Part shown: positions 13,668 through 43,111 of the stretch, piece after piece
Layout of the letters: each line of letters starts with the position of its first letter
How positions within the stretch are numbered: position 1 is the first letter of the stretch
From: an uncultured Telmatospirillum sp.
GTDB taxonomy: Bacteria > Pseudomonadota > Alphaproteobacteria > Rhodospirillales > Magnetospirillaceae
Assembly: GCA_903858635.1 (NCBI GenBank)
Contig: CAIOJO010000219.1
Span: forward strand, 1 to 43,385
Length of the DNA stretch: 43,385 nucleotides
Reading direction: 5' to 3'
The notes under the pieces: model-generated
Databases searched by the model: none
Seen by the model: the letters and a program-made list of their open reading frames with translations, nothing else
What the model was told of the DNA's origin: nothing
Made by a program: the position numbers and the translations under genes

Positions 13668-16600
13668 ATGGGATTGCTTTCGTACCCCTGGGACATACAG
13701 GGCTTTTCGGTCTTGCCTGAACATCGCCGCGAGACCCGATCCACCCCACTTCGCCTATTCCCGAAGACGGGCCTGCGGCTGACTGCCTGCCTCGCCTTCG
13801 CGATTGCCGGAGGGGTTCCCGGGCCGGTGACCGCCGGCATGAGCGAGACCCAGATTTCCCCCATCGCCCAGGCCACCCTCGATGCCTTGGTCGGCTCTTC
13901 CCTGGTGCCGGGCGCCACCGCCGGCCTGCGGTTCGCCGACGGCACCACCTGGCTCGGTGCGTCCGGCTATGCCGACGCCGCCCACACCCAGCTCCTGACG
14001 CCCTCCACCGAGATGCGCATCGGCAGCCAGACCAAGACCTATGTCGGCACCGTCGTCCTGCAACTGGTGGCCCAGGGCGCCATCGGCCTCAACCAGACCC
14101 TGGCCCAGTGGCTACCCTCGCTGAACGTTCCCAATGCGGCGCAGATCACCATCCAGGATCTCCTGGACATGCGCAGCGGCATTCCCGACTACCTGACGGT
14201 GCCGTCGCAGCATGCCGGCTATGCGGGCAAGACCATCCTCGACGAATGGGCGCTGACCGGGGGCCAGGCCGTCTATACGCCGACGCAACTGGTCACCGCC
14301 ACCAACGGCGTCGCCCGGACGACGCCGGCGCCGGGCGGGCAGATGAGTTACACCAACACCGATTTCGTCATCCTCGCCCTGATCGCCCAGCAGGCGAGCT
14401 GTCTCACTGCCACCGGCTGCCAATCCATCGAGACCATGGTCAATCAGGGGGTCATCGCCCCCCTCGGGCTGACCCATACGGTCTTCCCGACCAACTCCGC
14501 CTTCACCGGCACGTTCAGCAACGGCTATGTGTTCGCCGTTCCCGGGGCGCCGGTGACCGGCTTCGGCTCCTACGCCAATCCCGCCGCCACCGTTCCGGTG
14601 TCCTTCACATCGATCAATCCGGCGGTCCCCTGGGCCGCCGGGGCCATGCTCTCGACCTCCCAGGACGAACTGGTGTGGGTCGGCCAGCTTACCCGCAATG
14701 TCGCCGGTTTGTTGCCGGCCTCGCTCCAGGCGCAGCGGCTCACCCTGCTGCCCAATGCGGAGGTTGCCGGCTATCCGGCGGCCTACGGCCTCGGCATTTA
14801 CTCTCAAGTTTCGCCTCTGAACGGCGATGTCTTCCTGGGCCATGCCGGGTCGATACCGGGATATACCTCGGCCCCGTTCGAGAACACCACCCTCGGCATC
14901 GATTACGCCGTCAACGTCAATGCCTACCCGGCACCGGACGGCACCAGCGCGGTGACGGTGATGTGGCAGCTCGACCAGAACGTCGCCGGTGCCCTGGTCG
15001 CTTCCGGCAATTGCAGCAGCACGACGGCGGGCGCCGCCGGCACCGCCGCCTGTTCCGGCGACAGCGTCCGCCTGGCGCCGCTGACCTTGCAAGGGGGAAA
15101 CCTGACCATCGCCCCGTCGGGCAAGATCTACAACGGCTACGACAATCCGGTGTCGAACGCCGACGGCAGCGTCACCGTCACGCCGACCGCTCTGCCTGTT
15201 CCGACGGTCGCCTTCTACGGCGACAACCTGACCGGGATGAGCCTCGGCGGCGGTGCCGGGCTGACCATTCAGGCCGGTGCCCTGCTGTCGATGACCGGCA
15301 ACAATTCGGCCACCATCGCCCTCACCGGCACCGGCAATTCCGTCGCCGTCGCCGGCATGCTGCAGTCGATGGGCCTCAACGCCGCAGCGCTCAGCGATTC
15401 CGGATCCGGATCGACCATCACCCTGATGCCGGGCAGCGCGATCAACGCCCAGACCGGTGCCACCGGCGCGGCCATCATGCTGGCCGGCAGCAATGCCACG
15501 CTGACCGTCGGCGGCAGCGTGCAAAACCTCAATCAGTTCAGCTACGGCGCCCTGCTCTATCCCGCCTTGATCGACCGGGGCCACGGTTCACGGGTCACGG
15601 TGACGCCGACCGGGTCGCTGACCGGCGCGGTCGATCTGAGCCAATCCGACACCCGGCTGCGCCTCGATGGGATGATCGCCGGCAGTGTCACCATGGGCAG
15701 CAATGCGAGTTTGAGCGGATCAGGCACGGTTGCCGGCGCCGTGCAGGGTGGCACCATCCAGCCTGGCGATCCGGGCGGCACCGCGGCGCTGACGGTCGGC
15801 AGCCTCACCGGCGCCGGCACCACCCTGGCCTTCGACCTCACCGGTCCGCTGGCGCCGCTGGCGGTGACCACCGTCGCCAGCCTTACCGGTGGCGCCCTCG
15901 TCGCCACCCAGGCTCCCGCCGCCGGCACGGACGTGGCGACGGTGCTGCAGGCCGGGAGTGTCAGCGGCAACTTCGCCTCGGTAACGGCGCCGGGCCGCGT
16001 CGCCGCCACCGCCAATTACGGCGCCGACACCGTCCAACTGGCCACCGTCAGCCCGGCGCTGCTGGATGCCGAGACCTTCGCGGCACAGCATTCGATGCTC
16101 ACCCAACTCGACGCGGTCCGCGGGCGGCTCGCCGGCTTGCCTCGGGACGGGGAGAGTCCCGCCGCCACCAACACGGCCTCCGTCGAGGGCGGAGGCGGCG
16201 GCTTGGACGCCATGGGCAATGCGCTGGCTGCGGCGCCCCTGTCGGTTTCCGGCGCGAAGGGCACCGTATGGGGCCGTGGCTTCTATGAAGGCGGCCATCT
16301 GGGCGGCGCCGATGGGGTGAGTCCTTTCGCCGCCGGTGGCGGCGGCTTCCTGCTCGGTGCCGATACCACGATCACCGACGCAGTCACGGTGGGCGGGGCG
16401 TTCGGCTACGACCATCTGATCACCGGCCGCATTGGCGCCGGCGACCGTTTCGAGGGCTCGGCCTATTACGGCACGTTGTACGGCGCCTGGACACGGAAGT
16501 CGCTGTTCGTTCGCGGGGCGCTGCTGATGGGCGCCGGGGATGACAGCCTGACCCGCAGCACCAGCCTGGCCGGCTCCACTCTCCTTAGCCAGGCGCATCC

Positions 16601-17084
16601 CACCGATTGGCGGTTGGGGGCCGAGCTCAGCGCGGGAAAGGTGATTCCCGCCTATGGATTCGACATCGTGCCCAATCTCGGCCTGAGCTATCTGCGGGTG
16701 GACCAGCCGGCGGTCACCGACAGCGGCGCCGGCGCATTCAACCTGTCGACCGGCGGCCGGACGCCCGAGCTTCTGCGGATCCGCGCCGGTGCTGATCTCG
16801 ACCACACGAGCACCGCCGGCGGCCGCACGGTCAGGACCGATCTCCGTCTCGCCTACGCCCATGACAGCATGCTCGGCGGGCAGACGGCGACCGCCGCCTT
16901 CGCCGGATTCGGCTCGCCCTTCGCCTTGATCGGCAATGGCCATGACACCGACTCCGCGGTGATCGGCCTCGGCGCCCAAGTCAAACTCGACTCCGGCCTG
17001 TCGCTCGCCGCCGATTTCGAGGAGGATGTCTCCTCCGCCTCCTCCACCCGTTGGTTCATGGGCACCGTACGCTATGCTTTCTGA
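13668..17084 (+). CDS. Autotransporter (type Va) with a beta-lactamase-fold, S12-like serine hydrolase passenger.
   Basis: GGGAGG Shine-Dalgarno, then the ATG at 13668. Signal peptide LRLTACLAFAIAGGVPGPVTA. SxxK motif SQTK, YxN motif YTN, and an HxG-type third motif HAGSIPGY. A G/A/T/S-rich beta-helix-like stalk. The C-terminal beta-barrel ends in the aromatic terminus RYAF. Confidence 0.8.
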   Translation: MGLLSYPWDIQGFSVLPEHRRETRSTPLRLFPKTGLRLTACLAFAIAGGVPGPVTAGMSETQISPIAQATLDALVGSSLVPGATAGLRFADGTTWLGASGYADAAHTQLLTPSTEMRIGSQTKTYVGTVVLQLVAQGAIGLNQTLAQWLPSLNVPNAAQITIQDLLDMRSGIPDYLTVPSQHAGYAGKTILDEWALTGGQAVYTPTQLVTATNGVARTTPAPGGQMSYTNTDFVILALIAQQASCLTATGCQSIETMVNQGVIAPLGLTHTVFPTNSAFTGTFSNGYVFAVPGAPVTGFGSYANPAATVPVSFTSINPAVPWAAGAMLSTSQDELVWVGQLTRNVAGLLPASLQAQRLTLLPNAEVAGYPAAYGLGIYSQVSPLNGDVFLGHAGSIPGYTSAPFENTTLGIDYAVNVNAYPAPDGTSAVTVMWQLDQNVAGALVASGNCSSTTAGAAGTAACSGDSVRLAPLTLQGGNLTIAPSGKIYNGYDNPVSNADGSVTVTPTALPVPTVAFYGDNLTGMSLGGGAGLTIQAGALLSMTGNNSATIALTGTGNSVAVAGMLQSMGLNAAALSDSGSGSTITLMPGSAINAQTGATGAAIMLAGSNATLTVGGSVQNLNQFSYGALLYPALIDRGHGSRVTVTPTGSLTGAVDLSQSDTRLRLDGMIAGSVTMGSNASLSGSGTVAGAVQGGTIQPGDPGGTAALTVGSLTGAGTTLAFDLTGPLAPLAVTTVASLTGGALVATQAPAAGTDVATVLQAGSVSGNFASVTAPGRVAATANYGADTVQLATVSPALLDAETFAAQHSMLTQLDAVRGRLAGLPRDGESPAATNTASVEGGGGGLDAMGNALAAAPLSVSGAKGTVWGRGFYEGGHLGGADGVSPFAAGGGGFLLGADTTITDAVTVGGAFGYDHLITGRIGAGDRFEGSAYYGTLYGAWTRKSLFVRGALLMGAGDDSLTRSTSLAGSTLLSQAHPTDWRLGAELSAGKVIPAYGFDIVPNLGLSYLRVDQPAVTDSGAGAFNLSTGGRTPELLRIRAGADLDHTSTAGGRTVRTDLRLAYAHDSMLGGQTATAAFAGFGSPFALIGNGHDTDSAVIGLGAQVKLDSGLSLAADFEEDVSSASSTRWFMGTVRYAF

Positions 17085-18790
17085 GGGACCCGTCACCACG
17101 CTGGTTGAAGCCATTACGGCGCAACGGCGCAACGACCGCGTCCTTGCCCTGGTGTCGGGGACTGGGCGCACCACCCGGCGGACCTTCGCCGAACTCTACG
17201 CCGACGCGGCGCGGACCCTGGCCTGGCTGACCGCCTCGGGGCTGCGGCCGGGCGACGAACTGGTCCTGCTCATGGAGGATTACCCGCGCTTCGTCGGCAC
17301 CTTCTGGGCCTGCCTGCTGGGCGGCATCATCTGCGTCCCGGTGTCGCCGCCGACCACTGCCGATATCGCGCTCCGCATCCACCGCATCCTCGACGTCCTG
17401 GCCAGTCCCTGGCTGATGGCAAGCGCTCCCATGCGGGAGCGCCTGGCGGCAGCCGAGGGCCAGCGGCAGGAGCCGATGCAGGGACGGATGCTGGATCCGC
17501 CGACCTTGGACGAGACCGCGCCGCTGGCCGAGGCGCGTCCGGCAAGCGCCGACGACATCGCCTTCATCCAGTTCTCCTCGGGCTCCACCGGCCAGCCCAA
17601 GGGGGTCGTGCTGACCCATGCCAACCTGCTTGCCAACATCGCCGCGATCAAAGCCGGCGCCAAATTGGAGGAGACCGACCGGCTGGCGAACTGGATGCCG
17701 CTGACCCATGACTTCGGCATAATCTGGTTCCATATCATGCCGATGGTGCTGGGGCTCGACCATGCACTGATCCCGACACCGCTGTTCGTGCGCAACCCGC
17801 AGATCTGGTTGCGCACCATCGATTCCTTCAAGGCGACGGTGTCGGCCGCACCCAATTTCGCCTATCGCCACCTGCTCAAGCATCTGCGCAAGGAGATGCG
17901 GCGGGATTGGCGGCTGGACAGTCTGCGGCTGATCACCAACGGGGCGGAGCCCATCTCGGTGGGACTCGCCCGCAGCTTCGAAGCGGAGTTCGCCGGGGAC
18001 GGCCTGCGCGCCGGCGTGATCACTGCCGCCTACGGCCTGGCCGAAGGCACCTTGCTCGTCACCATGGCGGAACCCGGAACCGGCCTGCGGGAAATCGGCG
18101 TCGACCGCCGCGCCCTGTCCGCCGGCGACCGCGTCCGCCCGCTGCCCAACCGGGAGGACCCCGACCGCGCGGCCTTCGCCGAGGTCGGCCGGCCGGCTCC
18201 CGGCGTCGCCGTCCGCATCGCCGGCCAGGCGGATACACCCTGCGACGAGGGCATCGTCGGCCGCATCCAGATCCGCGGTCCTTGCGTGACGCCCGGCTAC
18301 TATCGCAATGAGCAGGCGACCCGGGCGGTGATGACCACGGATGGCTGGCTCGACACCGGCGATCTCGGCTTCATCGAGGACGGGAGTCTCTGTGTCACCG
18401 GGCGGCGCAAGGACGTGGTCATTCTGGGCGGGGCCAACTACTACCCACCGGATATCGAACGCGCCGCGGCGGATGTGCCCGGCCTCGATCTCAACATGGT
18501 GCTCGCCTGCGCCGTCCCTGTGGGCGAGGGCGAAGGCCTGGCTCTGTTCGCGCTGTTCCGCCAACCGATCGAGCAGTTCCCCGAACTGGCGCGCCAACTG
18601 CGCGACGCGGTGGTGCGCCAGATCGGGGTCCCGGTCGATTACTGCCTGCCGGTGACGCAGATCCCGCGCACCACCAGCGGCAAGGTGCAGCGCTACCGGT
18701 TGGCCGAGGACTTCAAGGCCGGCGTCTTCGCCGCCGAGATCGCCGCCCTGGAAGGATTCGAGCGGTCCGCCTATGCCCCCTTGCGCGACG
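17074..18790 (+). other. Fatty acyl-AMP ligase (FAAL) starter domain.
   Basis: [41 protein letters not shown], and GYYRNEQ...[11 protein letters not shown]...[20 protein letters not shown] (FAAL-type). Confidence 0.8.
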
Positions 18791-21700
18791 CCTGGCGCGC
18801 GGGTCGGCGGCGCGACCTCCTGGCGCGGCTCGGTGAGGAGGCGGGACGGCTGGTGCCCAGCGGCGCGGTAGCGGTCGACCAGCCGCTGATGAGCGCCGGC
18901 ATGACCTCGTTGCGCCTGGTCGAACTGGTCAGCCGGCTCAACACCGCCCTCGACCTGTCGCTGGCGGCCACCTTCCCGTTCGAATATCCGACGCTGGAGG
19001 ACATGGCCGAGGCCCTGCTCGGCATGCGCATCGCAAGCCAGGCGGAAGGCCCGGGCCCGACACAAGACTCTGGGGCGGGCGTTCCGCTTCGTGGCGAGGA
19101 TCGTCCGGGAGAGCCGATCGCCGTCATCGGCATCGGCTGCCGCCTGCCCAACGGCATCGACGGTCCCGACGCGTTGTGGAAACTTCTCGCCGAGGGCCGC
19201 GACACCGTCGGCCAGCCACCGGCCGGGCGCTGGCCCGACCCCTCGGCCGCCCCGGCGCCGGGATCCTGGCTGGCCGATCTCGACTTGTTCGACCACCGGC
19301 TGTTCCAGCTGTCGCCGGCCGAGGCCGCTGTCCTCGATCCCCAGCAGCGGCTGCTGCTGATGGTGAGCTGGCAGGCCTTCGAGGATGCCGGCATCGACCC
19401 GTTGGGTCTGCGCGGCAGCCGCACCGCGGTGTTCACCGGAATCACCAATCTCGACCAAGCCCGCTCCCAGGCCCGGGCCGGGCGCGAGGCGATGACCGGG
19501 CCTTACGCGGTGACCGGCGTATCGGCCAGCGTCGCTTCGGGCCGGCTGTCCTTCGTCTACGGTCTGGCCGGACCCAATCTCGCCATCGATACCGCCTGTT
19601 CTTCCGGGCTGGTGGCGGCGCATCAGGCGATGCGCAGTCTGCGGGCCGGCGAATGCGACCTCGCCCTGGCCGCCGCGGTCAATCTGATCCTGGTGCCCGA
19701 CACCCAACTGGGGCTTCAGGCGATGAACGCCCTGTCCCCCGACGGGCGCTGCAAGGCGTTCGACGCCCATGCCGACGGCTACGGCCGGGGCGAAGGCTGC
19801 GTCGTCCTGGTGATGAAGCGCCTGGCCGATGCAGTACGGGACGACGATCGGGTCCTGGGACTGCTGCAGGGCAGCGCCGTCAACCACGACGGCCGCAGCA
19901 GCGGGCTGACGGCGCCCAACGGCGCGGCGCAGCAGGCCGTCCTGCGGGCCGCCCTGGCCGACAGCGGCCTGGCCGGCAGCGCCATCGATTATGTCGAAGC
20001 CCATGGTACCGGCACGCCCCTGGGCGACCCGATCGAAGCCAATGCGCTGGGCGCCGTGTTCGGCGAAGACCGCCCGGCCGATCTGCCGCTGCTGGTGGGG
20101 TCGGTAAAGACCAATATCGGCCATCTCGAAGCGACAGCGGGTCTGGCCGGGCTGGTCAAGCTGCTGCTCGCCCTCGAGCATGGCCGCATCCCGCCCTCGC
20201 TGCATTTCAGCGAACCGAACCCGACCATTCCCTGGTCCGCCTTGGCGCTCGAGGTCACTGCCCAGGCGGTCGCCTGGACGGCCGGCCAGGACCGCCCCCG
20301 CCGGGCCGGGGTCAGCGCCTTCGGTTTCAGCGGCACCAATGTCCATGTCATCGTCGAGGAGGCAGCCGTCCCGGCGCCGCCGGCCAGGGTCGCCGGCCTT
20401 CCCCTGCTGCTGCCCTTGTCAGCGCGCAGCGACGCGGCCTTGGCCGCCATGGCCAAGACGACGGCCGCCGAACTGGCCGGCGCCGACGACGGCCGCCTCG
20501 TCGACCTCGCCTACACCCTGGCCACCGGACGCGCCGCCCTCGACCGGCGGATCGCGGTGGTCGGCCGCAGCAGCGCCGACCTTGCCGGCCGCCTCGAAGC
20601 GGCGGCGGCCAGACCGCAGCCGCCGGCCAGCGGCACGCCGGAGGTGATCTTCGCCTTTCCCGGGCAGGGTTCGCAAATGGCCGGGATCGCCGGCGAACTG
20701 CTCGCCCTGTCGCCGATCTTCCGCGACACCGTGGCCCGCGCCGATGCGGTCCTGGCACCCCGCCTCGGCCGGTCGCTGACCACGCTGCTGGCCGAATCCT
20801 GCAACGCCGCCGATTTGGCCCGCACCGGCCTCACCCAGCCGGTGGTGGTCGCCCTCGGCGTCGCGCTGGCGGCAATGCTTGAAGATTGGGGTATCCGGCC
20901 AACCGCCGTGCTGGGCCATTCGGTCGGCGAGATCGCCGCCGCCATCCATGCCGGAGCGATCGCCTTCGAGTCCGGCCTGGTCTTTGCCGCCGAACGGGGT
21001 CGGCTGATGGAGGGGCTGCCGGAAGGCGGCGCCATGGCGGCGGTGGTCGCCAGCGAGGACGAAGTGCGGGCGCTGCTCGACTCCGATCTCGCCCAAGATC
21101 TGGCCATCGCCGCCTTCAACGCCCCCAATCAGCTCACCATCTCCGGGCCGGCCGCGGCGCTGTCGGCATTCCGCGAACGCGCCTCGGCGCGCCACCTGCG
21201 GGTGGTGCCGCTGGCGGTGTCCCATGCCTTCCATTCGCCGCTGATCGAACCGGCCCTGCCCGAGCTCGCCCGCCTCGCGGCGCAATTGGTACCGGGCCGG
21301 CCGCGCCTGCCGGTCCATTCGACGCTGACCGGCGGCCTGATCGATCCCGCCGCCCTGACCGATCCCGATCATTGGCTGCGCCATGCCCGCCAGCCGGTGC
21401 GCTTTGCCGAAGCGCTGGGCTCGATTCCGCTGCGACCCGGGGCCTGCCTGATCGAACTCGGCGCCCGGCCGGCGTTGGGGCCGCTGGCGGCGCAGACGCA
21501 GCCTGATCTGCTCTGCCTGCCCGGCGCCAGTCAGGACGGCCTGGCTGTGGCGATGCTGGATTGCGCCGCCGCCCTGTTCATCGCCGGCACCGCCCTCGAC
21601 TGGCCGAGGCTTTACGCCGGCATTGGCGGCCGCCGGGTGCGGGCGCCCGGCTATGCCTTCGTCGAGCCGGTGCCGGCGGCTTCCCTGTTCACCGCGTCGG

Positions 21701-30963: not shown

Positions 30964-30967
30964 CCCC

Positions 30968-32845: not shown

Positions 32846-32879
32846 GGATGGCGAAATAAGGAACGGGACCATAGACGCC

Positions 32880-34400
32880 ATGCAACGCAACGCTTACGTG
32901 GAGCAGTTCGAGTGGCAGACCGAGACCCGCCCGGCGGCGATCGCCATCGAGGCCGGCGGACGGGAGGTGAGCTACGGAACGCTGAATCGCGACGCCAACC
33001 GTCTCGCCCATGCCCTCGGCAGCGGGTCCGCCGGAACCGCCCCGCGGATCGTCGGCCTGTTCCTCGAACCCGGCATCGCCTATGTCGGCGCGCTGCTGGC
33101 GGCCGGCAAGGCGGGCGCCGCCTTCATGCCGTTGGATCCGGCCGATCCGCCGGCCCGGCTGGCCGACAAGCTGGCCCGCAGCGGGGTCCGCCAAGTCATC
33201 ACCGACTCCCGGTTGGCGCCACTCCTGGCCGAACCTCTGGCCGGCCGGCCGGAGGTGGCGCTGTTGGTGGCGGACCATGCCGGCGCCGGCCTGCCGGACA
33301 GCAATCCCGGCCTCGCCGTCAAGGCCGGCGATCCCTGCTACGTCATGTTCACCTCGGGCTCGACCGGAACACCCAAGGCGATCCTCGGCCAGCAACGCGG
33401 CCTCAGCCATTTCCTGCGCTGGGAACTGGCCGAATTCGGACTCGACGAACGCTGCCGGATCTCCTGGCTGGCGCCGCCCACCTTCGATGTCAGCCTGCGC
33501 GACATCCTGGCGCCGCTGATGGCCGGCGGCTGCCTGTGCATTCCCGACGAGCCCACCGCCCGCACGCCGCGGCTGCTGATCCGCTGGCTGGCCGACCGCC
33601 GGATCACCCTGGTCCATTGCGTTCCCACCGTGCTGCGCCTTCTGACCCAAGAACTGGGATCAACCGGGGCGGCCCTGCCGCTGCCCGACCTCGGCCATCT
33701 CCTGGTGGCGGGGGAACCCCTCTACGGCGCCGATGTCGCCGCCTGGCGCGCCGCCGCCGGCGGTGGCGCCCGGCTGGTCAATCTGTACGGGCCCTCGGAA
33801 ACCACCCTCGCCAAGCTGTTCCATCGGATCGAGGACCTGCCCGCCGATCCGCGCCGGGTGCTACCCATCGGCCGGCCGCTGCCCAATACCGCGGTGTTGA
33901 TTCTCAAGAACGGCAAGCCCTGCGTGGTCGGCGAAATCGGCGAGATCCATATCCAGACCCCCTATCGCAGCCTCGGCTATCTCGGCGATCCGGAATTGAC
34001 GGCAGCCGCCTTCATCGCCCATCCGCAGAATCCGGCCGAGCCGGAACCGCTCTACCGGACCGGCGATCTTGGTCGCATCAACGAGCAGGGACTGGTGGAA
34101 TGCCTCGGCCGCATCGACAACCAGGTCAAGATCCGCGGTATCCGGATCGAACTGGGCGAGATCGAGGCTGCCATGCGCAGCCTGCCCGGGGTCGCCGATG
34201 CGGCGGTGACGGTGCATGCCGATCAGTCCCAAACACTGGTCTGCTACGTCACCGGCCGCGATGGTCCGCCGCCGGCGGCGGAAGCATTGCGCCAAGGACT
34301 GACGGCGATTCTGCCGCCGGCGCTTCATCCCCATCTGTTCGTCCCCCTCGCCCTGCTGCCCCGCACCCTCAGCGGCAAGATCAACCGCAAGGCCTTACCC
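32880..34400 (+). other. Adenylation domain A2.
   Basis: MFTSGSTGTPKA, TFDVSLRDI, NLYGPSETT, YRTGDLGR, GRIDNQVKIRGIRIELGEIE, SGKINRKAL. Confidence 0.85.
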
Positions 34401-37400
34401 CGGCCCGAAGCGCTGTTCTACCAACAGCACGCCTTTGCCGCGCCCGAGAGCGCCGCCGAAGAACGGCTGTGCCGGATCTGGAGCGAGCTGTTCGGCATGG
34501 AGCGGATCGGTGTGACCACCGCATTCGTCGAGTTCGGCGGTGACTCGCTGAAAGCGATGCGCGCCCTGGCCCGCATCTACGACGACTTCGGCATCGAGGT
34601 CAGCCTGCGCGATTTCTTCTCCCGTCCCACCATCCGCGCCCTGGCCTCCCTGCTTGCCACTACGGCCCAGCCTGCGGTCCCCGGCGCGCTGATTTCCCGA
34701 ATGCCGGAGATGCCCGACTATCCGGTATCGGCGGTCCAGGCACGGCTGTGGACGCTTGACCGCATGGGGGTCGCCCCGACCGCCTACAATCTCGCCGAAG
34801 CCTATCTGCTGGCCGGCCCGCTCGATGCCGAGGCCCTGGAGCAGGCCTTCCAGGCCACCATCGCCCGCCATGAATCGCTGCGCACCGCCTTCGTCGAGGG
34901 GGCGGGCGGCCTGCCCCGCCAAGTCGTCCATGCCGACCCGGCCTGGCGCATGGAACGGTTCGCAATGGCCTCGATCGAAGAGGCGGAAGCCGCGGCGGCA
35001 GCCAATCCCGAACATCCCTTCGATCTATCCCGGCCCACCCAGCTGCGGGTCGTCCTCATCCATTTGCCTGCCGGCCAGGACATCGAACGGCATGTGCTGC
35101 TGTTCAATATCCACCATATCATCAGCGATGTCTGGTCCCTCGACCTGCTGGTCCGCGAGGTGGCGGCACATTACCGGGCACGCATCGACACTGGCGGCGA
35201 GGCTCCCCTGCCCCCCCTCGCGCTGCACTATCGTGATTTCGCCGGCTGGCAACAGGCGCGGCTGTCCGGCCCCGATGCCGGCGCCGACCGGGCCTTCTGG
35301 CACGCCCATCTGGCGGCACCGCGGCCCCTGCTCGATCTGCCGACCGACCTGCCGCGCCCGGTGATGCAGACCTTCCGTGGCGCCACGCTGCACTTCGAGC
35401 TGCCGCCGGACAACCTGGCGGCGCTCGACCGTCTGGCCGAGACGCGCGGCGCCAGCCGCTTCTCCCTCCTCGCGGCGCTGACCGGACTGCTGCTGCACCG
35501 CGTCACCGGCCAGACCGACCTGATCCTCGGCAGCCCGGTGCTCGGACGCGATCAGCCCGGCCTGCAAGAGCAGATCGGCTGTTTCGTCAATGAACTTGCC
35601 CTTCGCCTGAGGATCGCTTCCGACGACAGCTTCGCCGACCTCCTGGCCCGCATGGCCGAAACCGTCGGCGGCGCTTTGCAGCACCAGTCCTTCCCCTTCG
35701 ACGCCCTGCTGGGTGAACTGGAATTGCGCCGGGACATCAGCCGCGCGCCGCTGTTCGATGTCATGGTGGTGCTGCAGCCGGAGGACAGTCTCGATCTGAC
35801 CCTCGACGGGATCGCAGTCTCGCCGTTCGGAGCGCGCAACGCCTGGAGCTTCAGCCGCTACGATCTGGTGTTCCATTTCATGGAAACCGCGGACGGGCTT
35901 CGCCTCGACCTCAATTACAACACCGATCTGTTCCTGCCCGCGCGGATCCGCCGACTGGGCGCCCTGTGGCTGGAAGCGGCGGAGGCCGCCGCCCTGGCCC
36001 CGGATGCGCCGTTGGCGTCCCAGGCGCCGCTGCCGGCCCAGGAAGTAACGCTGTTGGCCGAGCTGGCGGCGGGGCCGATGCGGCCGCGGCCGCAAGAGGC
36101 GACCATGGCGAGCCTGGTCGCGGCGCAGGCGCTGCGGGATCCGCAAGCGCTGGCGGTGCTGGCGGCGGGACAGTCGGTGAGCTACGGGCGGCTCGACCAG
36201 GCTGCCGGGCGGATCGCCCGACATCTGGCGGAACGGGGGATCCGACGCGGCGACCGGGTGGGGGTGCAGGCCCTGCCGAGCGCTGCCAGCCTGGCCGCAT
36301 TGCTGGGGATTCTCTATGCCGGAGCGGTCTATGTGCCGCTCGATTCGACCCTGCCGACGGCGCGGCTGGCGTGGATGGCGGCTCGCGCCGGCTGCCGCCT
36401 GGTGCTGGTCGACACGGCGGACGAGACCCGCCCCGAGGTCGGCGAAGCGGCAGCGGTGGCCGCCATTCTCGGCAGCGCCGATCCTGCCGGCTGGGCGCTG
36501 GAGGGACAGTCGGGTGGCCTCGACGCGGCGCTCGCGCCACGTCCGGAGGATGCCGCCTACCTCATCTTCACCTCCGGCTCGACCGGGGAACCCAAGCCGG
36601 TCCTGGTGGCCCACGGCGGTTTCGTCAACATGACCCTGGGCCAGGTCGAAATCCTCGGCTTAACGACGACGGACCGGGTGTTGCAGTTCGCCTCGCCGGG
36701 GTTCGACGCCGCCCTGGCCAATCTGTTCATGGCCTGGGTGGCGGGCGGGGCGGTGGTCACCATCGAGCGCGCGACGATTGACGATCCAGGACGCTTTCTC
36801 GCCACTCTGGACGCGACGAAGTGCAGCGTGGTGACCCTGCCGCCGACCTATCTGCGGATGCTCGACCACGCAACATTGGGCCCGGTGCAGGTGCTGATCA
36901 CCGCTGGCGAGCCGGCCGTAGCGGGGGATCTGGGCCATTACGCGAATCACCTGCGGGTGTTCAACGCATACGGTCCGACCGAGATCTCGGTCTGCGCCAC
37001 CATGCATCGGGTGCAGCCGGCGGATGGCGCCTTGGCCCGCATTCCCATCGGCCGGCCGCTGCCCAACGTCACCATCCGACTGCTCGATGCGGCCGGACGC
37101 GCGGTGCCGGCGGGCGCCGTCGGCGAGATCCATATCGGCGGGCCGGGCGTGGCGCTCGGCTATCTCGGCGATTCGACGGCGACCGCGGCGCGTTTCGTCA
37201 TCGGCAATAGTGGAGAGCGGCTCTATCGCAGCGGCGATCTGGGCCGATGGCGTGAAGACGGTAGCCTCGACTTCCTGGGCCGCAACGACGATCAGGTCAA
37301 GGTGAACGGCCATCGCCTCGAACCGGGCGAGGTGGCAGCGGCGCTGCGTGGCCTGCCCGATGTCGCCGACGCCCATGTCGCCGGGCTGACGCGGCCCGAC

Positions 37401-40229
37401 GGCAGCACCGGACTGGCCGCCTGGTACGTGCCGCGGCGCCGCCCGGAGCTGTGGCCATCGGTGGCGGAATTCTATATCTACGACGATATCCTCTACGGCA
37501 GCATGGCCGCCGACACGGCGCGCAACGCCGCCTACCGCGCCGCCTTCCAGCGCCATCTTGCCGGCAAGACGGTGCTCGAGATCGGTCCCGGCCCGCTGGC
37601 GGTGCTGTCGCGGCTTGCCATCGAAGCCGGGGCGAAGCGGGTTTATGCCGTCGAACTGCTGGCCGAGACCTGCGAGAAGGCGCGCCGTACCGTCGCCCTG
37701 CAGGGCCTGGCCGACCGCATCGTCGTGCTGCATGGCGATCTGCGCCATATCGCGCTGCCGGAACCGGCCGATATCTGCATCTCGGAGATTGTCGGCGCCA
37801 TCGGCGGCTCGGAGGGAGCGGCAGCGATCATCAATTCGGCGCGCCGCCTGCTGACCGACCCGACGGCAATGCTGCCGCGACGCAGTCTGACCCGCGTCGC
37901 CGCGGCAAGCCTGCCCGACGAATTGCTGCGGCGGGCCTTCGGCAAGACCGCCGCCCATTACGTCGAGCGAATCTTCGCCGAGGTCGGGCGCCCCTTCGAC
38001 CTGCGACTCTGCGTCAAACACCTGCCGATGGACGCAATCCTGTCCGGCGACGCGGCGTTCGAGGATCTCGACTTCACCCGCGACCTGCCGCTCGAGGGCG
38101 ACCACACCATCACCCTCGACGTCACCCGGGCCGGAGTGATGACCGGATTCATCGTTTGGCTGACCCTCGAAATCGACGAGACCAGCCGGTTCGACATCCT
38201 CGAATCGCAGGCCAGCTGGCTGCCGGTCTATCTTCCGGCCTTTCCCGAGGGGATCCAGGTCGAGCCCGGCGACCGCATCACCGCCACCATCCGCCGCCGC
38301 CTCTCGGTCAACCGCCTCAATCCCGACTTTGCGCTCTCCGGCGAGGTCATCCGAGCCGGCCTCCCGCCCTTGGCTTGGCACCATGACAGCCCCCATTGCG
38401 CTCAGTCGTTCCGGGCCAATCCCTTCACCCAAGCCTTGTTCCCCGAAGGGCGCATCGCCACCAGCGAGGCGGCCGCCACCGCCGAGCTGCGCTCCGCCTT
38501 GGCCCGCCAGTTGCCGGCCTATGCTGTTCCCGCCTTCCTGATCCCGGTGGACAGCCTGCCGCTGACCGCGAACGGCAAGGTGGACCGCACCGCCCTGCCC
38601 GACCCCCTGGCCGGCGCAGCGCAAAGCGGCGGCATCCCCGGGACGGCCCTCGAAGCAACCATTCTGGCCATCTGGCACAAGGTGCTGGGTCGGGAGGATC
38701 TGGGCACCGGTGACGATTTCTTCTCCCATGGCGGCGACTCGATCCGCGCCATCCAAATCCTCGCCCAGCTCTACCAGGCCGGTCTCAAGGCGGAGATCCG
38801 CGATATCTTCCAGAACCCGACGGTGGCGACCTTTGCCCGGCGGGTCCGGCCGCTCCGGCAGGCCGCCACCCAGGAGCCGGCGGCCGGTCCGGCGCCGTTG
38901 ACCGCAATCCAGCGCTGGTTCTTCCACACCATCACGGCGGCCCCGGCGCATTTCCTCGTTGCGGTGCTGCTCAAGGCGCCGGCACGGCTTGACCCTACCG
39001 CCACCGAAGGCGCGGTGCAGGCCCTATGGCGCCACCATGATGCCCTGCGGGCCCGTTTCATCGATGGGCCGCCGACCATCCAGCAAATCATCGACGGCCC
39101 CGAAACCCGGGCTGGCTTTACCGAAGTCGATCCGGATCGACTGCCCGACTGGGCGAACGCCGCCTATGGCAGCCTGTCGCTGCGCGATGGCCCCTTGTTC
39201 AAGGCGGTACTCGCCCGTGGCGCCGGCGAGGCGGGCGGCGATGCGGTTCTCCTGGTCGCCCACCATCTGGTCGCCGACGCGGTGTCCTGGCGCTTCCTGC
39301 TGGAGGACTTCATCACCGCCTACGAGGCGCTGCGGACCGGTGAGGTTCCCAACCTGCCCCGCAAGACCCTGTCATTCCGCGACTATGCGCGGAGCGAAGA
39401 GCAGGCCGCGCCTGCCAACGACACCGACCTCGCCGACTGGCGGCGGCTGGCGGCGGTGCCGCCGCTGCCGGTCGACCACCCGGCACCGGGCGGCGCGACC
39501 GTCGCCGACAGCCGCAGTGTGGCCCTGGTGATTCCCGCCCCCGAAACCGCCCTGCTGGTGGCGGCGGCGCATTCCGAGCCCGATGGGGGACTGCAGGTTC
39601 TGCTCCTGGCCACCCTTGCCCGTGCACTGCGCCGCAGCTTCGGCTGCCGGCGCGCCCTGATCACCGTCGAAGGGCACGGCCGCGACGAAAGCGCCGATGA
39701 ATTCGATCTCACCCGCACCGTTGGCTGGTTCACCGTCTTCCATCCGCTGCTCCTGGAGATGCCGGAGGTTCCGATCCTCGATCTGGCCCGCCAGATCCAG
39801 CGCAATCTCGCCCTGCTGCGCGGCCGTAGCCGGGCCTACGTGAAAGGCTTGGCGGCTCTCGGCGCCGAAGCACCCGCCCCGTCGATCGGCTTCAATTATC
39901 TGGGTGACTTCGGTGCGACCCGCCGGGGCGAAGGGATCGCCGTCGAGTGGACGCCGCCAGGCCAGCCGGCCGCGCCGGACAATCCGCGGATTCACCCGAT
40001 CGACCTGCTGGCCATGGTGATTGATGGTCGGCTGGAGATCGGGATCGATTACGATTCCGGCAGCTTCGCGGCGACGACCATCGCCCGGCTGGCCGAGTCG
40101 TGGCGGGCCGCGCTGGACGAATTTGCCGCCGGATGCCGCCAGGCGGGCGGCTTGAGCCGCCTTGACACCGCCCCTTCCCACTTTCCGATGGACCAGGCGC
40201 ATTTGGAGAACCTGCTTGTCGGCGACTGA
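32880..40229 (+). CDS. NRPS. Domain order: A-T-C-A(with embedded methyltransferase)-T-C(terminal).
   Basis: See the domain features. There is no thioesterase domain. Confidence 0.95.
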   Translation: MQRNAYVEQFEWQTETRPAAIAIEAGGREVSYGTLNRDANRLAHALGSGSAGTAPRIVGLFLEPGIAYVGALLAAGKAGAAFMPLDPADPPARLADKLARSGVRQVITDSRLAPLLAEPLAGRPEVALLVADHAGAGLPDSNPGLAVKAGDPCYVMFTSGSTGTPKAILGQQRGLSHFLRWELAEFGLDERCRISWLAPPTFDVSLRDILAPLMAGGCLCIPDEPTARTPRLLIRWLADRRITLVHCVPTVLRLLTQELGSTGAALPLPDLGHLLVAGEPLYGADVAAWRAAAGGGARLVNLYGPSETTLAKLFHRIEDLPADPRRVLPIGRPLPNTAVLILKNGKPCVVGEIGEIHIQTPYRSLGYLGDPELTAAAFIAHPQNPAEPEPLYRTGDLGRINEQGLVECLGRIDNQVKIRGIRIELGEIEAAMRSLPGVADAAVTVHADQSQTLVCYVTGRDGPPPAAEALRQGLTAILPPALHPHLFVPLALLPRTLSGKINRKALPRPEALFYQQHAFAAPESAAEERLCRIWSELFGMERIGVTTAFVEFGGDSLKAMRALARIYDDFGIEVSLRDFFSRPTIRALASLLATTAQPAVPGALISRMPEMPDYPVSAVQARLWTLDRMGVAPTAYNLAEAYLLAGPLDAEALEQAFQATIARHESLRTAFVEGAGGLPRQVVHADPAWRMERFAMASIEEAEAAAAANPEHPFDLSRPTQLRVVLIHLPAGQDIERHVLLFNIHHIISDVWSLDLLVREVAAHYRARIDTGGEAPLPPLALHYRDFAGWQQARLSGPDAGADRAFWHAHLAAPRPLLDLPTDLPRPVMQTFRGATLHFELPPDNLAALDRLAETRGASRFSLLAALTGLLLHRVTGQTDLILGSPVLGRDQPGLQEQIGCFVNELALRLRIASDDSFADLLARMAETVGGALQHQSFPFDALLGELELRRDISRAPLFDVMVVLQPEDSLDLTLDGIAVSPFGARNAWSFSRYDLVFHFMETADGLRLDLNYNTDLFLPARIRRLGALWLEAAEAAALAPDAPLASQAPLPAQEVTLLAELAAGPMRPRPQEATMASLVAAQALRDPQALAVLAAGQSVSYGRLDQAAGRIARHLAERGIRRGDRVGVQALPSAASLAALLGILYAGAVYVPLDSTLPTARLAWMAARAGCRLVLVDTADETRPEVGEAAAVAAILGSADPAGWALEGQSGGLDAALAPRPEDAAYLIFTSGSTGEPKPVLVAHGGFVNMTLGQVEILGLTTTDRVLQFASPGFDAALANLFMAWVAGGAVVTIERATIDDPGRFLATLDATKCSVVTLPPTYLRMLDHATLGPVQVLITAGEPAVAGDLGHYANHLRVFNAYGPTEISVCATMHRVQPADGALARIPIGRPLPNVTIRLLDAAGRAVPAGAVGEIHIGGPGVALGYLGDSTATAARFVIGNSGERLYRSGDLGRWREDGSLDFLGRNDDQVKVNGHRLEPGEVAAALRGLPDVADAHVAGLTRPDGSTGLAAWYVPRRRPELWPSVAEFYIYDDILYGSMAADTARNAAYRAAFQRHLAGKTVLEIGPGPLAVLSRLAIEAGAKRVYAVELLAETCEKARRTVALQGLADRIVVLHGDLRHIALPEPADICISEIVGAIGGSEGAAAIINSARRLLTDPTAMLPRRSLTRVAAASLPDELLRRAFGKTAAHYVERIFAEVGRPFDLRLCVKHLPMDAILSGDAAFEDLDFTRDLPLEGDHTITLDVTRAGVMTGFIVWLTLEIDETSRFDILESQASWLPVYLPAFPEGIQVEPGDRITATIRRRLSVNRLNPDFALSGEVIRAGLPPLAWHHDSPHCAQSFRANPFTQALFPEGRIATSEAAATAELRSALARQLPAYAVPAFLIPVDSLPLTANGKVDRTALPDPLAGAAQSGGIPGTALEATILAIWHKVLGREDLGTGDDFFSHGGDSIRAIQILAQLYQAGLKAEIRDIFQNPTVATFARRVRPLRQAATQEPAAGPAPLTAIQRWFFHTITAAPAHFLVAVLLKAPARLDPTATEGAVQALWRHHDALRARFIDGPPTIQQIIDGPETRAGFTEVDPDRLPDWANAAYGSLSLRDGPLFKAVLARGAGEAGGDAVLLVAHHLVADAVSWRFLLEDFITAYEALRTGEVPNLPRKTLSFRDYARSEEQAAPANDTDLADWRRLAAVPPLPVDHPAPGGATVADSRSVALVIPAPETALLVAAAHSEPDGGLQVLLLATLARALRRSFGCRRALITVEGHGRDESADEFDLTRTVGWFTVFHPLLLEMPEVPILDLARQIQRNLALLRGRSRAYVKGLAALGAEAPAPSIGFNYLGDFGATRRGEGIAVEWTPPGQPAAPDNPRIHPIDLLAMVIDGRLEIGIDYDSGSFAATTIARLAESWRAALDEFAAGCRQAGGLSRLDTAPSHFPMDQAHLENLLVGD
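34440..34660 (+). other. PCP.
   Basis: FVEFGGDSLKAM. Confidence 0.75.
34715..36020 (+). other. Condensation domain C5.
   Basis: YPVSAVQARLWTL...; IHHIISDVWS. Confidence 0.8.
36090..38605 (+). other. Adenylation domain A3, interrupted between core motifs A8 and A9.
   Basis: FTSGSTGEPKPV, GFDAALANL, NAYGPTEIS, YRSGDLGRW, GRNDDQVKVNGHRLEPGEV (A8), then an insert of about 350 aa, then LPAYAVPAFL (A9) and NGKVDRTAL (A10). Confidence 0.85.
37440..38500 (+). other. Embedded PRMT-fold (type I protein-arginine-methyltransferase-like) SAM methyltransferase domain.
   Basis: FYIYDDILYG...NAAYRAAF resembles the YFxxY...ML...R...Y N-terminal helix of PRMTs. The motif I region is VLEIGPGPLAVLSRLAIEAGAKRVYAVE; compare PRMT VLDVGSGTGIL..AAKAGA.KVIGIE. 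The post-I region is IVVLHGDLRHIALPEPADICISEIVGAIGGSEGAA, with two Glu nine residues apart (compare the PRMT double-E loop in VDIIISEWMGYCLFYESM). A THW-loop-like SWLPVYL follows. Confidence 0.65.
38640..38860 (+). other. PCP.
   Basis: FFSHGGDSIRAIQ. Confidence 0.75.
38888..40226 (+). other. Terminal condensation-like domain (a candidate releasing or cyclising C domain).
   Basis: LTAIQRWFF...; VAHHLVADAVSW (an HHxxxD-type motif with Ala in place of Gly). It is the last domain, and the operon encodes no thioesterase. Confidence 0.7.
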
Positions 40230-40929
40230 CCGATCTGTTTCCTGGCCACAGCCCGGCCAGATTCATGTCTGGTACTGCCGGCAGGACTCCGCGACGGAGC
40301 CGGCGGCCGACACGCTCGATGCGGCCGAGCGGGAGCAGGCGGGGCGGTTCCGCAATCGCCACGACGCCCGGCGCCATATGGCGACCCATGGCGCCTTGCG
40401 CCGTATCCTCGCCGCCTATCTGGGGCTTGATCCCGCCGCCGTGCCGATCACCCGCAGCGCCGCCGGCAAGCCCCGGCTCGGTCTGTCCGGCGCAGAACCC
40501 GGCTTGACCTTCAACCTGTCCCACAGCGCCGATCTGGCCGCCGTCGCCGTCGCCGCGGGGGCAGAGATCGGAGTCGATATCGAGGAGAAGCGGCCCTTGG
40601 CAGATCTGGATGGCGTCGCCCGCCTGGTCTTCACCGAGGCGGAATGCGCCGCCCTGGACTCCCTGCCGCAATCGCGACGACTCGACGCCTTCTATGAGTG
40701 CTGGACCCGCAAGGAGGCGTTGCTCAAGGCGATGGGCAGCGGCCTGCTGCGCGATCCGCGGGAGGTCGGACTGGGGTTCGGGGAAGGCGGCAAGATGGAA
40801 TTCCGTGACGCCGATTCCAGCCTGTGGTCCATCGCCCCGCTTGCCCCGCCGGAGGGGATGGGCGGAGCGGTGGCCATCCAGGGCCGACTCCTCGGAGTCC
40901 TGCAGTTTGACGGCGCACCGGGGAAGTAA
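40216..40929 (+). CDS. Sfp-type 4'-phosphopantetheinyl transferase.
   Basis: GKPRL, FNLSHSADLA, GVDIEEKRP, ECWTRKEALLKAMG. The proposed TTG start at 40216 has a GGAGA Shine-Dalgarno 7 nt upstream and overlaps the NRPS stop by 14 nt. There is no in-frame ATG or GTG before the conserved N-terminal region. Confidence 0.75.
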   Translation: MSATDRSVSWPQPGQIHVWYCRQDSATEPAADTLDAAEREQAGRFRNRHDARRHMATHGALRRILAAYLGLDPAAVPITRSAAGKPRLGLSGAEPGLTFNLSHSADLAAVAVAAGAEIGVDIEEKRPLADLDGVARLVFTEAECAALDSLPQSRRLDAFYECWTRKEALLKAMGSGLLRDPREVGLGFGEGGKMEFRDADSSLWSIAPLAPPEGMGGAVAIQGRLLGVLQFDGAPGK

Positions 40930-42300: not shown

Positions 42301-42340
42301 GGCCCTTCTGATCTGCTGGTTCGGGTGCCGGAGAGGACCC

Positions 42341-42507
42341 TCAACGGGTCTGTCGTTGGGCCATGCTCATGGTAATGATCAGGACCAGCAACCCGATAAG
42401 CGGCGTCATCACCATCGAAACGACAAAATAGAGCAGGAAACCGCCCGGCCGGCCGGTCGCCAGGAGACCGACCAGCAAGGCGCAGGCGACGTACCAGACC
42501 CCGAGCA
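42341..42507 (-). CDS. Possible membrane protein of about 55 aa with two transmembrane segments; it is not in the ORF track.
   Basis: Own translation: MLGVWYVACALLVGLLATGRPGGFLLYFVVSMVMTPLIGLLVLIITMSMAQRQTR. It sits between the SPFH gene and the DUF697-like gene on the same strand. No Shine-Dalgarno was checked. Weak. Confidence 0.2.
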
Positions 42508-42541
42508 TCACGGCACCCGCCGGCCGGTTCCGCTCATGGCG

Positions 42542-43099: not shown

Positions 43100-43111
43100 C
43101 ACACCCTCCAT

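Follow-up and report, generated by a model that had tools for sequence, protein, structure and literature searches.

In Bacillus, the mycosubtilin and iturin assembly lines begin with MycA, in which an acyl-AMP ligase, an acyl carrier protein (ACP), a ketosynthase (KS), a second ACP, an aminotransferase (AMT) and a condensation (C) domain follow one another, and the acyltransferase (AT) acts in trans. A fatty acyl-AMP ligase, or FAAL, and a polyketide synthase (PKS) with an aminotransferase also start the hybrid nonribosomal peptide synthetase (NRPS) lines of puwainaphycin and laxaphycin (PMC4219810), and the cystomanamide system (ctm/cym) of Cystobacter fuscus is a Gram-negative source of a beta-amino-fatty-acid lipopeptide (PMC9581180). 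Here we describe a locus with the same kind of front end in a stretch of 43,385 nucleotides (nt) from an uncultured Telmatospirillum sp. (assembly GCA_903858635.1, contig CAIOJO010000219.1), hereafter the window, where five genes on the plus strand between 13668 and 40929 encode a PKS-NRPS assembly line together with a surface-directed S12-family hydrolase. As judged from its gene content, the window holds most, not all, of one member of a conserved PKS-NRPS cluster family. We propose that this uncharacterised family makes a beta-aminoacyl lipopeptide that is released by a thioesterase (TE) and processed by the S12 enzyme, and we put the probability of this model as a whole at roughly 0.7. The predicted family product reads beta-aminoacyl–X–Thr–Y–D-Tyr (probably O-methylated)–Asp/Asn.

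Results

Gene layout and the MycA-like front end

The five open reading frames (ORFs) fill 13.6-40.9 kb and show a third-position G+C content (GC) of 0.81-0.86, while the GC of the window lies at 63-73%. In order they encode an S12 hydrolase fused to an autotransporter (13668-17084, 1138 amino acids (aa)), a hybrid PKS-NRPS megasynthase (17074-30963, 4629 aa from the called start), an AsnB-like amidotransferase (30968-32845, 625 aa), a second synthetase, NRPS2 (32880-40229, 2449 aa), and a phosphopantetheinyl transferase (PPTase; 40216-40929, 237 aa), all five with starts and products as called in public records by exact look-up. Neighbouring genes overlap by 11 nt at the first junction and by 14 nt at the last, with gaps of 4 nt and then 34 nt in between, which confirms the co-directional arrangement with overlapping or 4-34 nt junctions described in the initial annotation of this DNA. 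Terminator-like sites between the five genes were not above chance in a terminator scan, and together with the close packing this fits a single transcript without proving it. A promoter scan likewise gave nothing above chance, and no Rfam families or tRNAs were found in the window. Within the five-gene operon neither an MbtH motif nor a transporter was seen, and only three cis adenylation (A) domains serve four peptide carrier (T) domains, both as noted at the outset.

Pfam searches with whole proteins and with cut segments gave for the megasynthase the order AMP-binding, PP, KS, AT, PP, Aminotran_3, C, PP, C, C, A, PP, C, exactly as first proposed; such a search had been named as a check, and it supports the AMT, C-T-C-C and embedded methyltransferase calls. 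With residues numbered from the ORF start at 17026 rather than from the called start at 17074, the front end consists of an acyl-AMP ligase (17119-18795; AMP-binding, residues 32-426), ACP1 (18817-19017; PP, residues 598-664), a KS with the motifs DTACSS and HGTGT (19111-20208; residues 696-1061), a malonyl-type AT with GHSVG and HAFH (20650-21432; residues 1209-1469), ACP2 with its serine in GLDSL (21811-22011; PP, residues 1596-1662) and the AMT (22444-23412; Aminotran_3, residues 1807-2129, 1e-47). The peptide part follows with C1 (HHIAVDGWS; 23653-24885, residues ~2210-2620), T2 (GGHSL; 24976-25167, PP residues 2651-2714), C2 (25216-26466, residues 2731-3147), C3 (26479-27708, residues 3152-3561), an A domain coded for threonine (27781-29250, residues 3586-4075), T3 (29338-29529, PP residues 4105-4168) and C4 (HHIVADGWS; 29593-30864, residues 4190-4613). 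All carriers keep their serine and all C-type domains keep HHxxxD.

The AMT carries the assignment of the front end. Its best solved relative is the AMT domain of mycosubtilin synthase A (6kfm, E-value 1.8e-128, 432 bits), far ahead of the next family, glutamate-semialdehyde (GSA) aminomutase (1.4e-60, 209 bits), it lies after the KS/ACP pair as in MycA, and with 60-72% it is the most conserved domain across orthologues. The MycA logic recognised in the initial annotation is thus well founded. For the loading domain the earlier call of a FAAL held only in part. The domain appears FAAL-like, not cleanly FAAL: its best NCBIfam models, the long-chain-fatty-acid--CoA ligase PRK07768 (346 bits) and the fatty acyl-AMP ligase PRK09192 (340 bits), both stay below their cut-offs, and among solved structures 6ulx and McyG (4r0m) rank ahead of the FAALs 3pbk and 3kxw and of FadD32.

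The end of NRPS2 and the termination module

Pfam and motif reading give NRPS2 the order A1-T-C-A2(MT)-T-E, with A1 at 32907-34379, its T domain at 34461-34655, C5 at 34716-36038, A2 with its core at 36123-37376 and the rest extending to 38579, a methyltransferase (MT) inserted in A2 at 37377-38483, a second T domain with the motif GGDSI at 38658-38846 and an epimerization (E) domain at 38892-40199. This agrees with the initial annotation up to the last T domain; the final domain had been called a C domain, taking the place of a TE and possibly cyclising or amidating the product. However, the final domain shows the motifs PLTAIQRWFF, HHLVADAVSW, EGHGRD, TRTVGWFT and FNYLGD, matches TIGR01720, and has as its only strong solved relatives PvdL, TycB, bacitracin synthase 3 and the E domains of TycA (2xhg) and GrsA (5isw), all of them E domains or E-containing. 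On these motifs and relatives, and because of the preceding GGDSI carrier, we conclude that it is a canonical E domain, and a releasing CT-type C domain was rejected on the same grounds and because a separate TE module occurs in the family. Since NRPS2 ends in an E domain, a following C domain that accepts a D-configured donor is needed.

Such a C domain is found in relatives of the cluster. Scanning species-representative genomes with the C1-T-C2 region identified six collinear relatives, two of them in metagenome-assembled genomes (MAGs) of Pseudochelatococcus (L001) and Bradyrhizobium (L004) at 56-57% identity and four at 37-40% identity in Halieaceae, Marivita (L003), Puniceibacterium sediminis DSM 29052 (L005) and Sulfitobacter; the order megasynthase-AsnB-NRPS2 is the same in all six. 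Collinearity of the megasynthase extends to its orthologues in L001 and L003-L006 (38-51% identity) and to the parts present in the loci L002, L013 and L014 (38-61%). In L003-L006 a C-A-T-TE gene lies directly upstream of the megasynthase, accompanied in L004 by a type II thioesterase (TEII), and C-A-T-TE also adjoins the cluster in L014 and L023. The C domain of this termination module starts with the D-donor-type motif PLSPLQEGMLFH, and in L017 a C-domain gene starting ...PLSPLQEGMLFH runs off the contig at the corresponding position. Further NRPS2 orthologues of ~2300-2460 aa occur in MAGs labelled Azospirillaceae and Thermoanaerobaculia and in other metagenomes, where the contexts repeat AsnB, NRPS2, PPTase, an ABC exporter, Band_7 and DUF697.

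The same module exists in the lineage of the window itself. Sibling contigs carry identical AsnB, Band_7, DUF697, S12, lipoprotein and PPTase proteins; the 58,450-nt (ERZ1426847) and 24.7-kb siblings were compared by their gene tables. Beyond DUF697, the 58,450-nt contig shows a 259-nt gap, a divergent 1318-aa C-A-T-TE gene, and then a 262-aa thioesterase (TEII), TauD, DUF4337, Cupin_2 and CheA. A short sibling contig (L020) is 99.3% identical to positions 41881-43247 of the window, with an identical DUF697, and encodes the first 1090 aa of the C-A-T-TE protein, whose product starts MLTPDNVQQIFPLSPLQEGMLFHH. A query with the homologue from L014 did not return the protein of the window's own lineage, which came to light through L020. 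The siblings are ~99% identical to the window up to 43247 and then differ, continuing into C-A-T-TE in L020, into the end of an ABC ATPase gene in L021 and L022, and into 138 nt of its own (43248-43385, no strand assigned) in the window. Position 43247 is a strain-variable junction, because the tail of the window matches neither L020 nor L021 and L022, and this is probably the reason why the contig ends here. In passing, the record of the 58,450-nt contig splits the megasynthase into a 2470-aa and a 2070-aa product instead of a single one of 4629 aa, through either a frameshift or a faulty assembly.

These data bear on the original proposal of a self-contained five-gene operon that makes a roughly tetrapeptide product and releases, cyclises or amidates it by a terminal C domain instead of a TE. 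The tight packing of the five genes on one strand and the lack of a TE or extra module within 43 kb speak for it; yet its terminal domain has all E motifs and the relatives PvdL, TycA (2xhg) and GrsA (5isw) instead of being a releasing C domain, the carrier before it reads GGDSI, and relatives and siblings alike have a C-A-T-TE protein that begins with the D-donor-type PLSPLQEGMLFH. We therefore consider a self-contained operon very unlikely. The family provides five amino-acid positions after the beta-amino acid rather than about four, and cluster limits of 13668 and 40929 were drawn too narrowly, since the Band_7/DUF697 genes, C-A-T-TE and TEII lie beyond them.

Specificity codes of the A domains

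Specificity codes were read by aligning each A domain with a GrsA fragment and comparing the result with described codes; the readings are leads only. The megasynthase A domain has the code DFWNIGMVHK, with DFWNIGMV, DFWSVGMVH and DFWSWGLVH in orthologues, which we take to mean Thr. The A1 code of NRPS2, DVRH(L/F)ALLA(K), is conserved in all seven orthologues examined, including one from Acidobacteriota. A2 has DAATIAAVC(K), or DASTIAAVC(K) in Rhodobacterales, presumably for a Tyr/Phe-like residue, and the termination module has DLTK(x)GHI(G/C)K in L003-L006, L014, L017 and L020 (DLTKIGHIC in L020), which we assume to be Asp-like.

An A-less module, a tandem C pair and a Thr-linked C3 clade

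The first peptide module, C1-T2, combines a complete C1 with a GGHSL carrier and leaves no space for an A domain, and it is A-less in all orthologues. In L001, L004 and the proteins P0422 and P0425, a degenerate remnant of ~150-165 aa from the C-terminal subdomain of an A domain survives between C1 and T, which indicates that the module lost its A core; this remnant is kept in Pseudochelatococcus and Bradyrhizobium, and nothing of it is left in the window or the Rhodobacterales versions. We infer that T2 has to receive its amino acid in trans from a different A domain, as A-less or inactive modules are complemented in trans in other systems (PMC8949500). The A-less module, the tandem C-C, AsnB and the MT are conserved across relatives labelled Hyphomicrobiales, Rhodobacterales, Halieaceae and Acidobacteriota, so the first two and the MT, all described in the initial annotation, are genuine features of the family.

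Within the tandem, C2 is a canonical domain with all core motifs, its best relatives in the PDB being Txo1/2 and TycC (227 bits) and its closest ones C domains with L-configured donors. A mis-called E domain was considered for C2 and rejected in view of its C-type motifs and these L-donor relatives. C3 reaches 108 bits against Txo, reads HHAVTDPVG and has degenerate core motifs C4 and C5, and its conservation among orthologues (35-50%) equals that of the neighbouring domains. We searched 1.84 billion representatives with C3 and dissected the top 150 proteins with local hidden Markov models of the family C1-C4, A and T domains. The C3 model was preferred by only 17 of 812 C-like regions, 13 of which stand directly after another full C domain (at 0-16 aa or with an overlap of a few residues) and 2 at a protein N-terminus. 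Among the A domains directly following a C3-type domain, 13/14 are Thr-coded, compared with 55/707 overall (Fisher p 1e-14), the remaining one having the code DVWNVAMVH; part of this association may reflect shared descent, as C and A domains co-evolve. The C3-type members (P0289, P0302, P0320, P0325, P0330, P0341, P0411, P0417 and P0427 among them) share the signature HQERLWF(I/V)DxFExGxxYxxxPxY(H/Y)N, HHxxxD(R)x and GKYD, although two of the 20 members lack the second, catalytic His. Because the clade recurs as C-C3-A(Thr)-T before Thr A domains in NRPSs of Chitinophaga, Desulfopila and Rhodospirillum, the C-C3-A(Thr) arrangement is a recurrent unit and not an accident of this gene.

For the role of C3 we see two candidates, a Thr-modifying activity or a scaffold that recruits a tailoring enzyme. 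C3 shows a weak match (7e-9) to the CmodAA domain of AmbE, yet it lies upstream of the Thr A domain and not downstream of its carrier. Analogies for a scaffold are offered by the interface domains now annotated by antiSMASH 8 (PMC12230676), by the C-C-A(Asn) module of cystomanamide (PMC9581180) and by the C-TauD-C-A(Asp) arrangement of potashchelin (PMC7100376).

The methyltransferase embedded in A2

The MT is an insert of 369 aa that splits the C-terminal subdomain of A2 between GHRLEPGEV and LPAYAVP...NGKVDR, which makes A2 an interrupted A domain. Its top 47 sequence matches are all protein arginine methyltransferases (PRMTs), led by PRMT6 (E-value 5.5e-17) and including CARM1, PRMT9, PRMT7 and Hmt1. 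A structure model built from 12 orthologous inserts reached a predicted local distance difference test (pLDDT) score of 88.7, and its top 50 fold matches in the PDB are again all PRMTs (PRMT6, CARM1, Hmt1), with template modelling (TM) scores of 0.64/0.72 over ~340 columns that span both the Rossmann half and the beta-barrel half. Two loops are invariant in the 12 orthologues, the double-E loop (SEIVGxIGGSEG) and an SWLP loop. A canonical TioS-like backbone N-MT was therefore discarded as an identity for this domain, the sequence and fold matches all being PRMTs. By analogy with LynB3 of lyngbyapeptin B, where Tyr O-methylation is presumed by the authors, not demonstrated (PMC10127204), the MT most likely O-methylates the phenol oxygen of the Tyr-like residue; alternatively, it may act as an N-methylating enzyme.

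The S12 hydrolase-autotransporter

The S12 protein consists of a signal peptide (~13668-13835), the S12 domain (13878-14873), a passenger linker (14874-16265) and a barrel (16266-17018). Pfam assigns Beta-lactamase PF00144 (1e-36) and Autotransporter PF03797 (1e-38, spanning positions 1-254 of the 255 in the profile), the motifs SQTK144, YTN252 and HAG416 are intact and the C-terminus reads ...RYAF, so that an S12 enzyme carried by a classical type V autotransporter, as first annotated, is well supported. Its closest solved relatives are the alkaline D-peptidase 4y7p (1e-27), the D-stereospecific amidohydrolase 3wwx, the R61 DD-peptidase and D-amino-acid amidase.

Among candidates scored from 5.8 billion clusters, only 15 homologues reached an E-value of 1e-10 or less; all 15 have intact motifs and signal peptides, and six have the barrel. 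In all seven versions examined (the window, L013, L014, L023, L024, L003 and L005) the S12 homologue adjoins the cluster family. In L013 it overlaps the megasynthase by the same 11 nt as in the window, L014 and L023 have it between the megasynthase and C-A-T-TE, divergent from the former, in L024 it follows an ABC exporter and lacks the barrel, and Marivita (L003) and Puniceibacterium (L005) have partial S12 genes beside C-A-T-TE. We give hardly any credence to the view that S12 is an unrelated neighbour, for instance a cell-wall DD-peptidase or an esterase. S12 enzymes do have many housekeeping roles, and the divergent orientation in L014 and L023 means that co-transcription is not universal; but the family is tiny, with these 15 proteins, every homologue context examined falls within the cluster family in distant taxa, and the 11-nt stop/start overlap is kept in both the window and L013.

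It is highly improbable, too, that S12 is a SurE-like off-loading cyclase of the penicillin-binding-protein type that takes the D-terminated chain from the T-E end of NRPS2 and in this strain stands in for a TE. That end, the window without a TE, the SxxK/YxN/HxG motifs shared with SurE (PMC12903863) and a weak match to SurE (E-value 9e-6) would suit such a role. However, among solved proteins it stands closest to D-peptidases and amidases rather than to SurE; the signal peptide, the barrel and the C-terminal aromatic residue imply that it works outside the cytoplasm and away from the thioester; and S12 co-occurs with the TE module in L014, L023, L003, L005 and a sibling contig. S12 is thus an exported protein that coexists with a TE, which argues against off-loading. 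A ClbP-type N-acyl-D-Asn prodrug system was likewise rejected, there being no Asn-coded A domain and no E domain after the first peptide module.

Known S12 enzymes of NRP clusters suggest another role. The resistance peptidase BogQ is stated to belong to S12, TriF, which is described alongside it, makes its cut after aromatic D-residues (PMC9541196), and S12 DL-peptidases remodel lipopeptides (PMC12903863). Because a D-aromatic residue is predicted for the product of this cluster and such S12 D-peptidases occur in NRP clusters, we infer that the S12 protein would act outside the cytoplasm on the product at the predicted D-Tyr.

AsnB and PPTase

The AsnB homologue scores 467 bits against TIGR01536 (cut-off 267) and keeps both the N-terminal MCGIVG with its catalytic Cys and the PP-loop SGGLDS, in agreement with its initial assignment as an AsnB-like amidotransferase; it is a glutamine-dependent enzyme of class II. 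It lies between the megasynthase and NRPS2 in 10 of the 10 loci that show this junction (L001-L006, L017, L018, L019 and L024). It belongs neither with lasso cyclases (222 bits, cut-off 525) nor with macrolactam cyclases (77 bits, cut-off 300). Beta-lactam synthetases have lost the glutaminase Cys. We accordingly rejected the idea that AsnB is a beta-lactam synthetase working on the beta-amino acid while the S12 "beta-lactamase" confers resistance, the protein having kept this Cys and fitting generic asparagine synthases. Given the Asp code of the final module, the simplest role for AsnB would be to amidate Asp or another carboxylate of the peptide.

The PPTase is composed of the Pfam domains ACPS and AASDHPPT_N, in line with its first identification as Sfp-type. 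It scores 135 bits against the HetI model, which is under the equivalog cut-off, so that Sfp/HetI-type describes it best. In L017 and L024 a PPTase also follows NRPS2.

Flanking genes

Upstream and divergent from the S12 gene, an ORF on the minus strand (11955-13466) encodes a lipoprotein-like protein of 503 aa with the lipobox LLAGC. It has no Pfam or NCBIfam match, and a single-sequence AlphaFold2 model was unusable (pLDDT 34). L013, the closest relative, has a homologue with 58% identity (3473-4900) that likewise lies divergently upstream of the S12 gene, the exact protein is encoded on a sibling contig, and an alignment of the intergenic region with L013 revealed no conserved box. The lipoprotein is possibly an accessory gene of the cluster.

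On the downstream side, three genes on the minus strand encode a Band_7/SPFH protein (40936-42300), a 55-aa membrane protein (42341-42508) and a DUF697 protein (42542-43099), the first and the last assigned by Pfam. The three adjoin the cluster in L014, L017 and L018 (Puniceibacterium), often with an ABC exporter, and DUF697 does so in L023; they may form a membrane-protection or export module for the lipopeptide.

Farther from the cluster, 3-7 kb upstream, lie a TauD-family dioxygenase gene (6370-7395, minus strand), a two-component system (7389-9502) and a class V aminotransferase gene (9548-10849, minus strand). Near the start of the window, an ORF on the plus strand (1013-2338) covers no more than positions 45-328 of ornithine/arginine/lysine decarboxylase models that are 720 aa long; it also overlaps a pyruvoyl-dependent arginine decarboxylase gene (528-1148) and looks truncated or like a pseudogene.

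Discussion

The domains described above can be arranged in a pathway whose order of use follows from collinearity. The acyl-AMP ligase would load a carboxylic acid, probably a fatty acid, on ACP1; KS, the malonyl AT and ACP2 would add two carbons, and the MycA-type AMT would turn the beta-keto group into a beta-amine. C1 would then couple this beta-aminoacyl unit to an amino acid on T2 that is presumably charged in trans. C2 would condense the chain onto Thr, selected by the one A domain that the megasynthase has in cis, and C3 might modify the T-bound Thr or recruit a tailoring enzyme. C4 would pair with A1-T of NRPS2, and C5-A2 would add a Tyr/Phe-like residue, which the embedded PRMT-fold MT would methylate, likely at the phenol oxygen on the LynB3 analogy, and which the terminal E domain would convert to the D-configuration. 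The separate protein with its D-donor-type C domain, Asp-coded A domain, T domain and TE would add Asp and release the chain; AsnB might amidate a carboxylate, converting Asp to Asn or the C-terminal carboxylate to an amide, and the PPTase would prime the carrier domains. Finally, as homology and co-occurrence suggest, the exported S12 enzyme may hydrolyse or transacylate the peptide at the D-aromatic residue on the cell surface, either in self-protection or in maturation.

Several points weigh against this model. The window has no TE or termination module within its 43 kb, and the strain it comes from may lack the module or have moved it. With McyG and a keto-acid A domain the acyl-AMP ligase domain reaches slightly higher scores than with the solved FAALs; the starter acid need not be a long fatty acid. 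Charging of the A-less carrier T2 by another A domain is a supposition, the A1 code is unassigned, and all specificity codes come from alignment with a GrsA fragment and comparison with described codes, not from a curated predictor, and are to be taken as leads. The roles given to AsnB, C3 and S12 are, moreover, suggested by sequence for a product that is itself predicted.

We also asked how an amphiphilic siderophore would fit these genes, with the lipid tail, Thr and a hydroxylated Asp as iron ligands, as in the FAAL-initiated lipopeptide siderophores of marine bacteria. Potashchelin-type lines indeed start with FAAL-ACP-C-TauD-C-A(Asp) (PMC7100376), and here the terminal module is Asp-coded, genes of the TauD family are found at 6370-7395 and beside the sibling TEII, and a gene for a TonB C-terminal domain lies at 17-496. 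But there is a single Asp position, the TonB gene is 13 kb away, the TauD-like protein of the window bears only a distant, weak likeness to butyrobetaine-type and TmpA-like dioxygenases, and in no locus do a TonB-dependent receptor, a siderophore importer or hydroxamate or catechol genes adjoin the cluster. We consider a siderophore quite unlikely and retain the TE-released, S12-processed lipopeptide as our interpretation.

A more far-reaching proposal links two readings, and taken jointly we regard it as tentative and rather doubtful. S12 would be a maturase, not just a hydrolase for resistance, with acyl transfer like that of a DD-transpeptidase, directed to the beta-amine or to an amine of the envelope: it would take the acyl-D-Tyr–Asp/Asn end, expel the terminal residue and pass the acyl group to the molecule's own beta-amine, which would amount to an ATP-independent extracellular cyclisation. 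C3, in turn, would represent a new class of Thr-module domain, recurring as C-C3-A(Thr) in Bacteroidota, Desulfobacterota and Alphaproteobacteria.

Whatever the details of the product, the family, labelled so far as Pseudochelatococcus, Bradyrhizobium, Azospirillaceae, Marivita, Puniceibacterium, Sulfitobacter, Halieaceae and Thermoanaerobaculia, offers a compact system for three questions about NRPSs, namely how an A-less module is charged, what an extra C domain does before a Thr A domain, and what a PRMT-fold MT does within an A domain. The cluster-linked S12 enzyme, here fused to an autotransporter, extends the idea of D-stereospecific peptidases known from Gram-positive bacteria to the Gram-negative surface, and S12 and the product form an enzyme–substrate pair open to direct testing. 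Two points merit experiments, the surface S12 enzyme with its strict link to the cluster and the C3-type domain with its link to Thr. Expression of 13668-40929 alone would probably give no released product, because the termination module, TEII and the exporter lie outside this range.

Full-text literature searches on FAAL/AMT/AsnB/autotransporter, on A-less modules and tandem C domains, and on Rhodobacteraceae lipopeptides returned neither this cluster family nor a name for its product, in itself weak evidence. The novelty first claimed for the parts holds for their conserved combination, for which no characterised counterpart was found and which is the unusual feature here. It does not hold for the single parts, as precedents exist for the tandem C-C (PMC9581180), the PRMT-like MT (PMC10127204) and an S12 enzyme in a biosynthetic gene cluster (PMC9541196).

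Compared with MycA, the locus shares the front end, and its AMT is clearly of the MycA type (6kfm). It differs in having the AT in cis (HAFH), an A-less first peptide module, a shorter and different peptide, a tandem C-C, an MT of PRMT fold within A2, AsnB and an S12 autotransporter, and in belonging to a Gram-negative host with ~70% GC. Cystomanamide shares a Gram-negative host and the combination of a C-C-A-PCP module with E domains (PMC9581180). By its description, however, the tandem C there precedes an Asn module that gives beta-OH-Asn rather than a Thr module, the line has an FkbH glycerate module and an E-TE end in cis, and AsnB, an S12 autotransporter and an A-less module do not appear in that description (PMC9581180). 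The embedded MT has its counterpart in LynB3/LynB5 of lyngbyapeptin B from Moorena bouillonii, where an arginine-MT-like domain likewise sits in a Tyr A domain (PMC10127204); LynB3 also has a TioS-like backbone N-MT, which is missing here, and the assembly line is otherwise unrelated. BogQ/TriF, ClbP and Lip3/Lip7 are extracytoplasmic SxxK/YxN serine hydrolases encoded with D-residue NRPSs (PMC9541196, PMC12903863), as is the S12 protein of this cluster by prediction. Unlike them, it is fused to an autotransporter barrel and has an alkaline D-peptidase as its closest solved relative, and unlike ClbP it is not accompanied by an N-acyl-D-Asn prodrug module. Finally, puwainaphycin and laxaphycin resemble the predicted product in their starter logic and in the common occurrence of Thr-derived residues, but they are macrocycles of 10-12 residues made by many canonical modules, and their descriptions include no A-less module, AsnB or S12, the very parts that this family has kept together.

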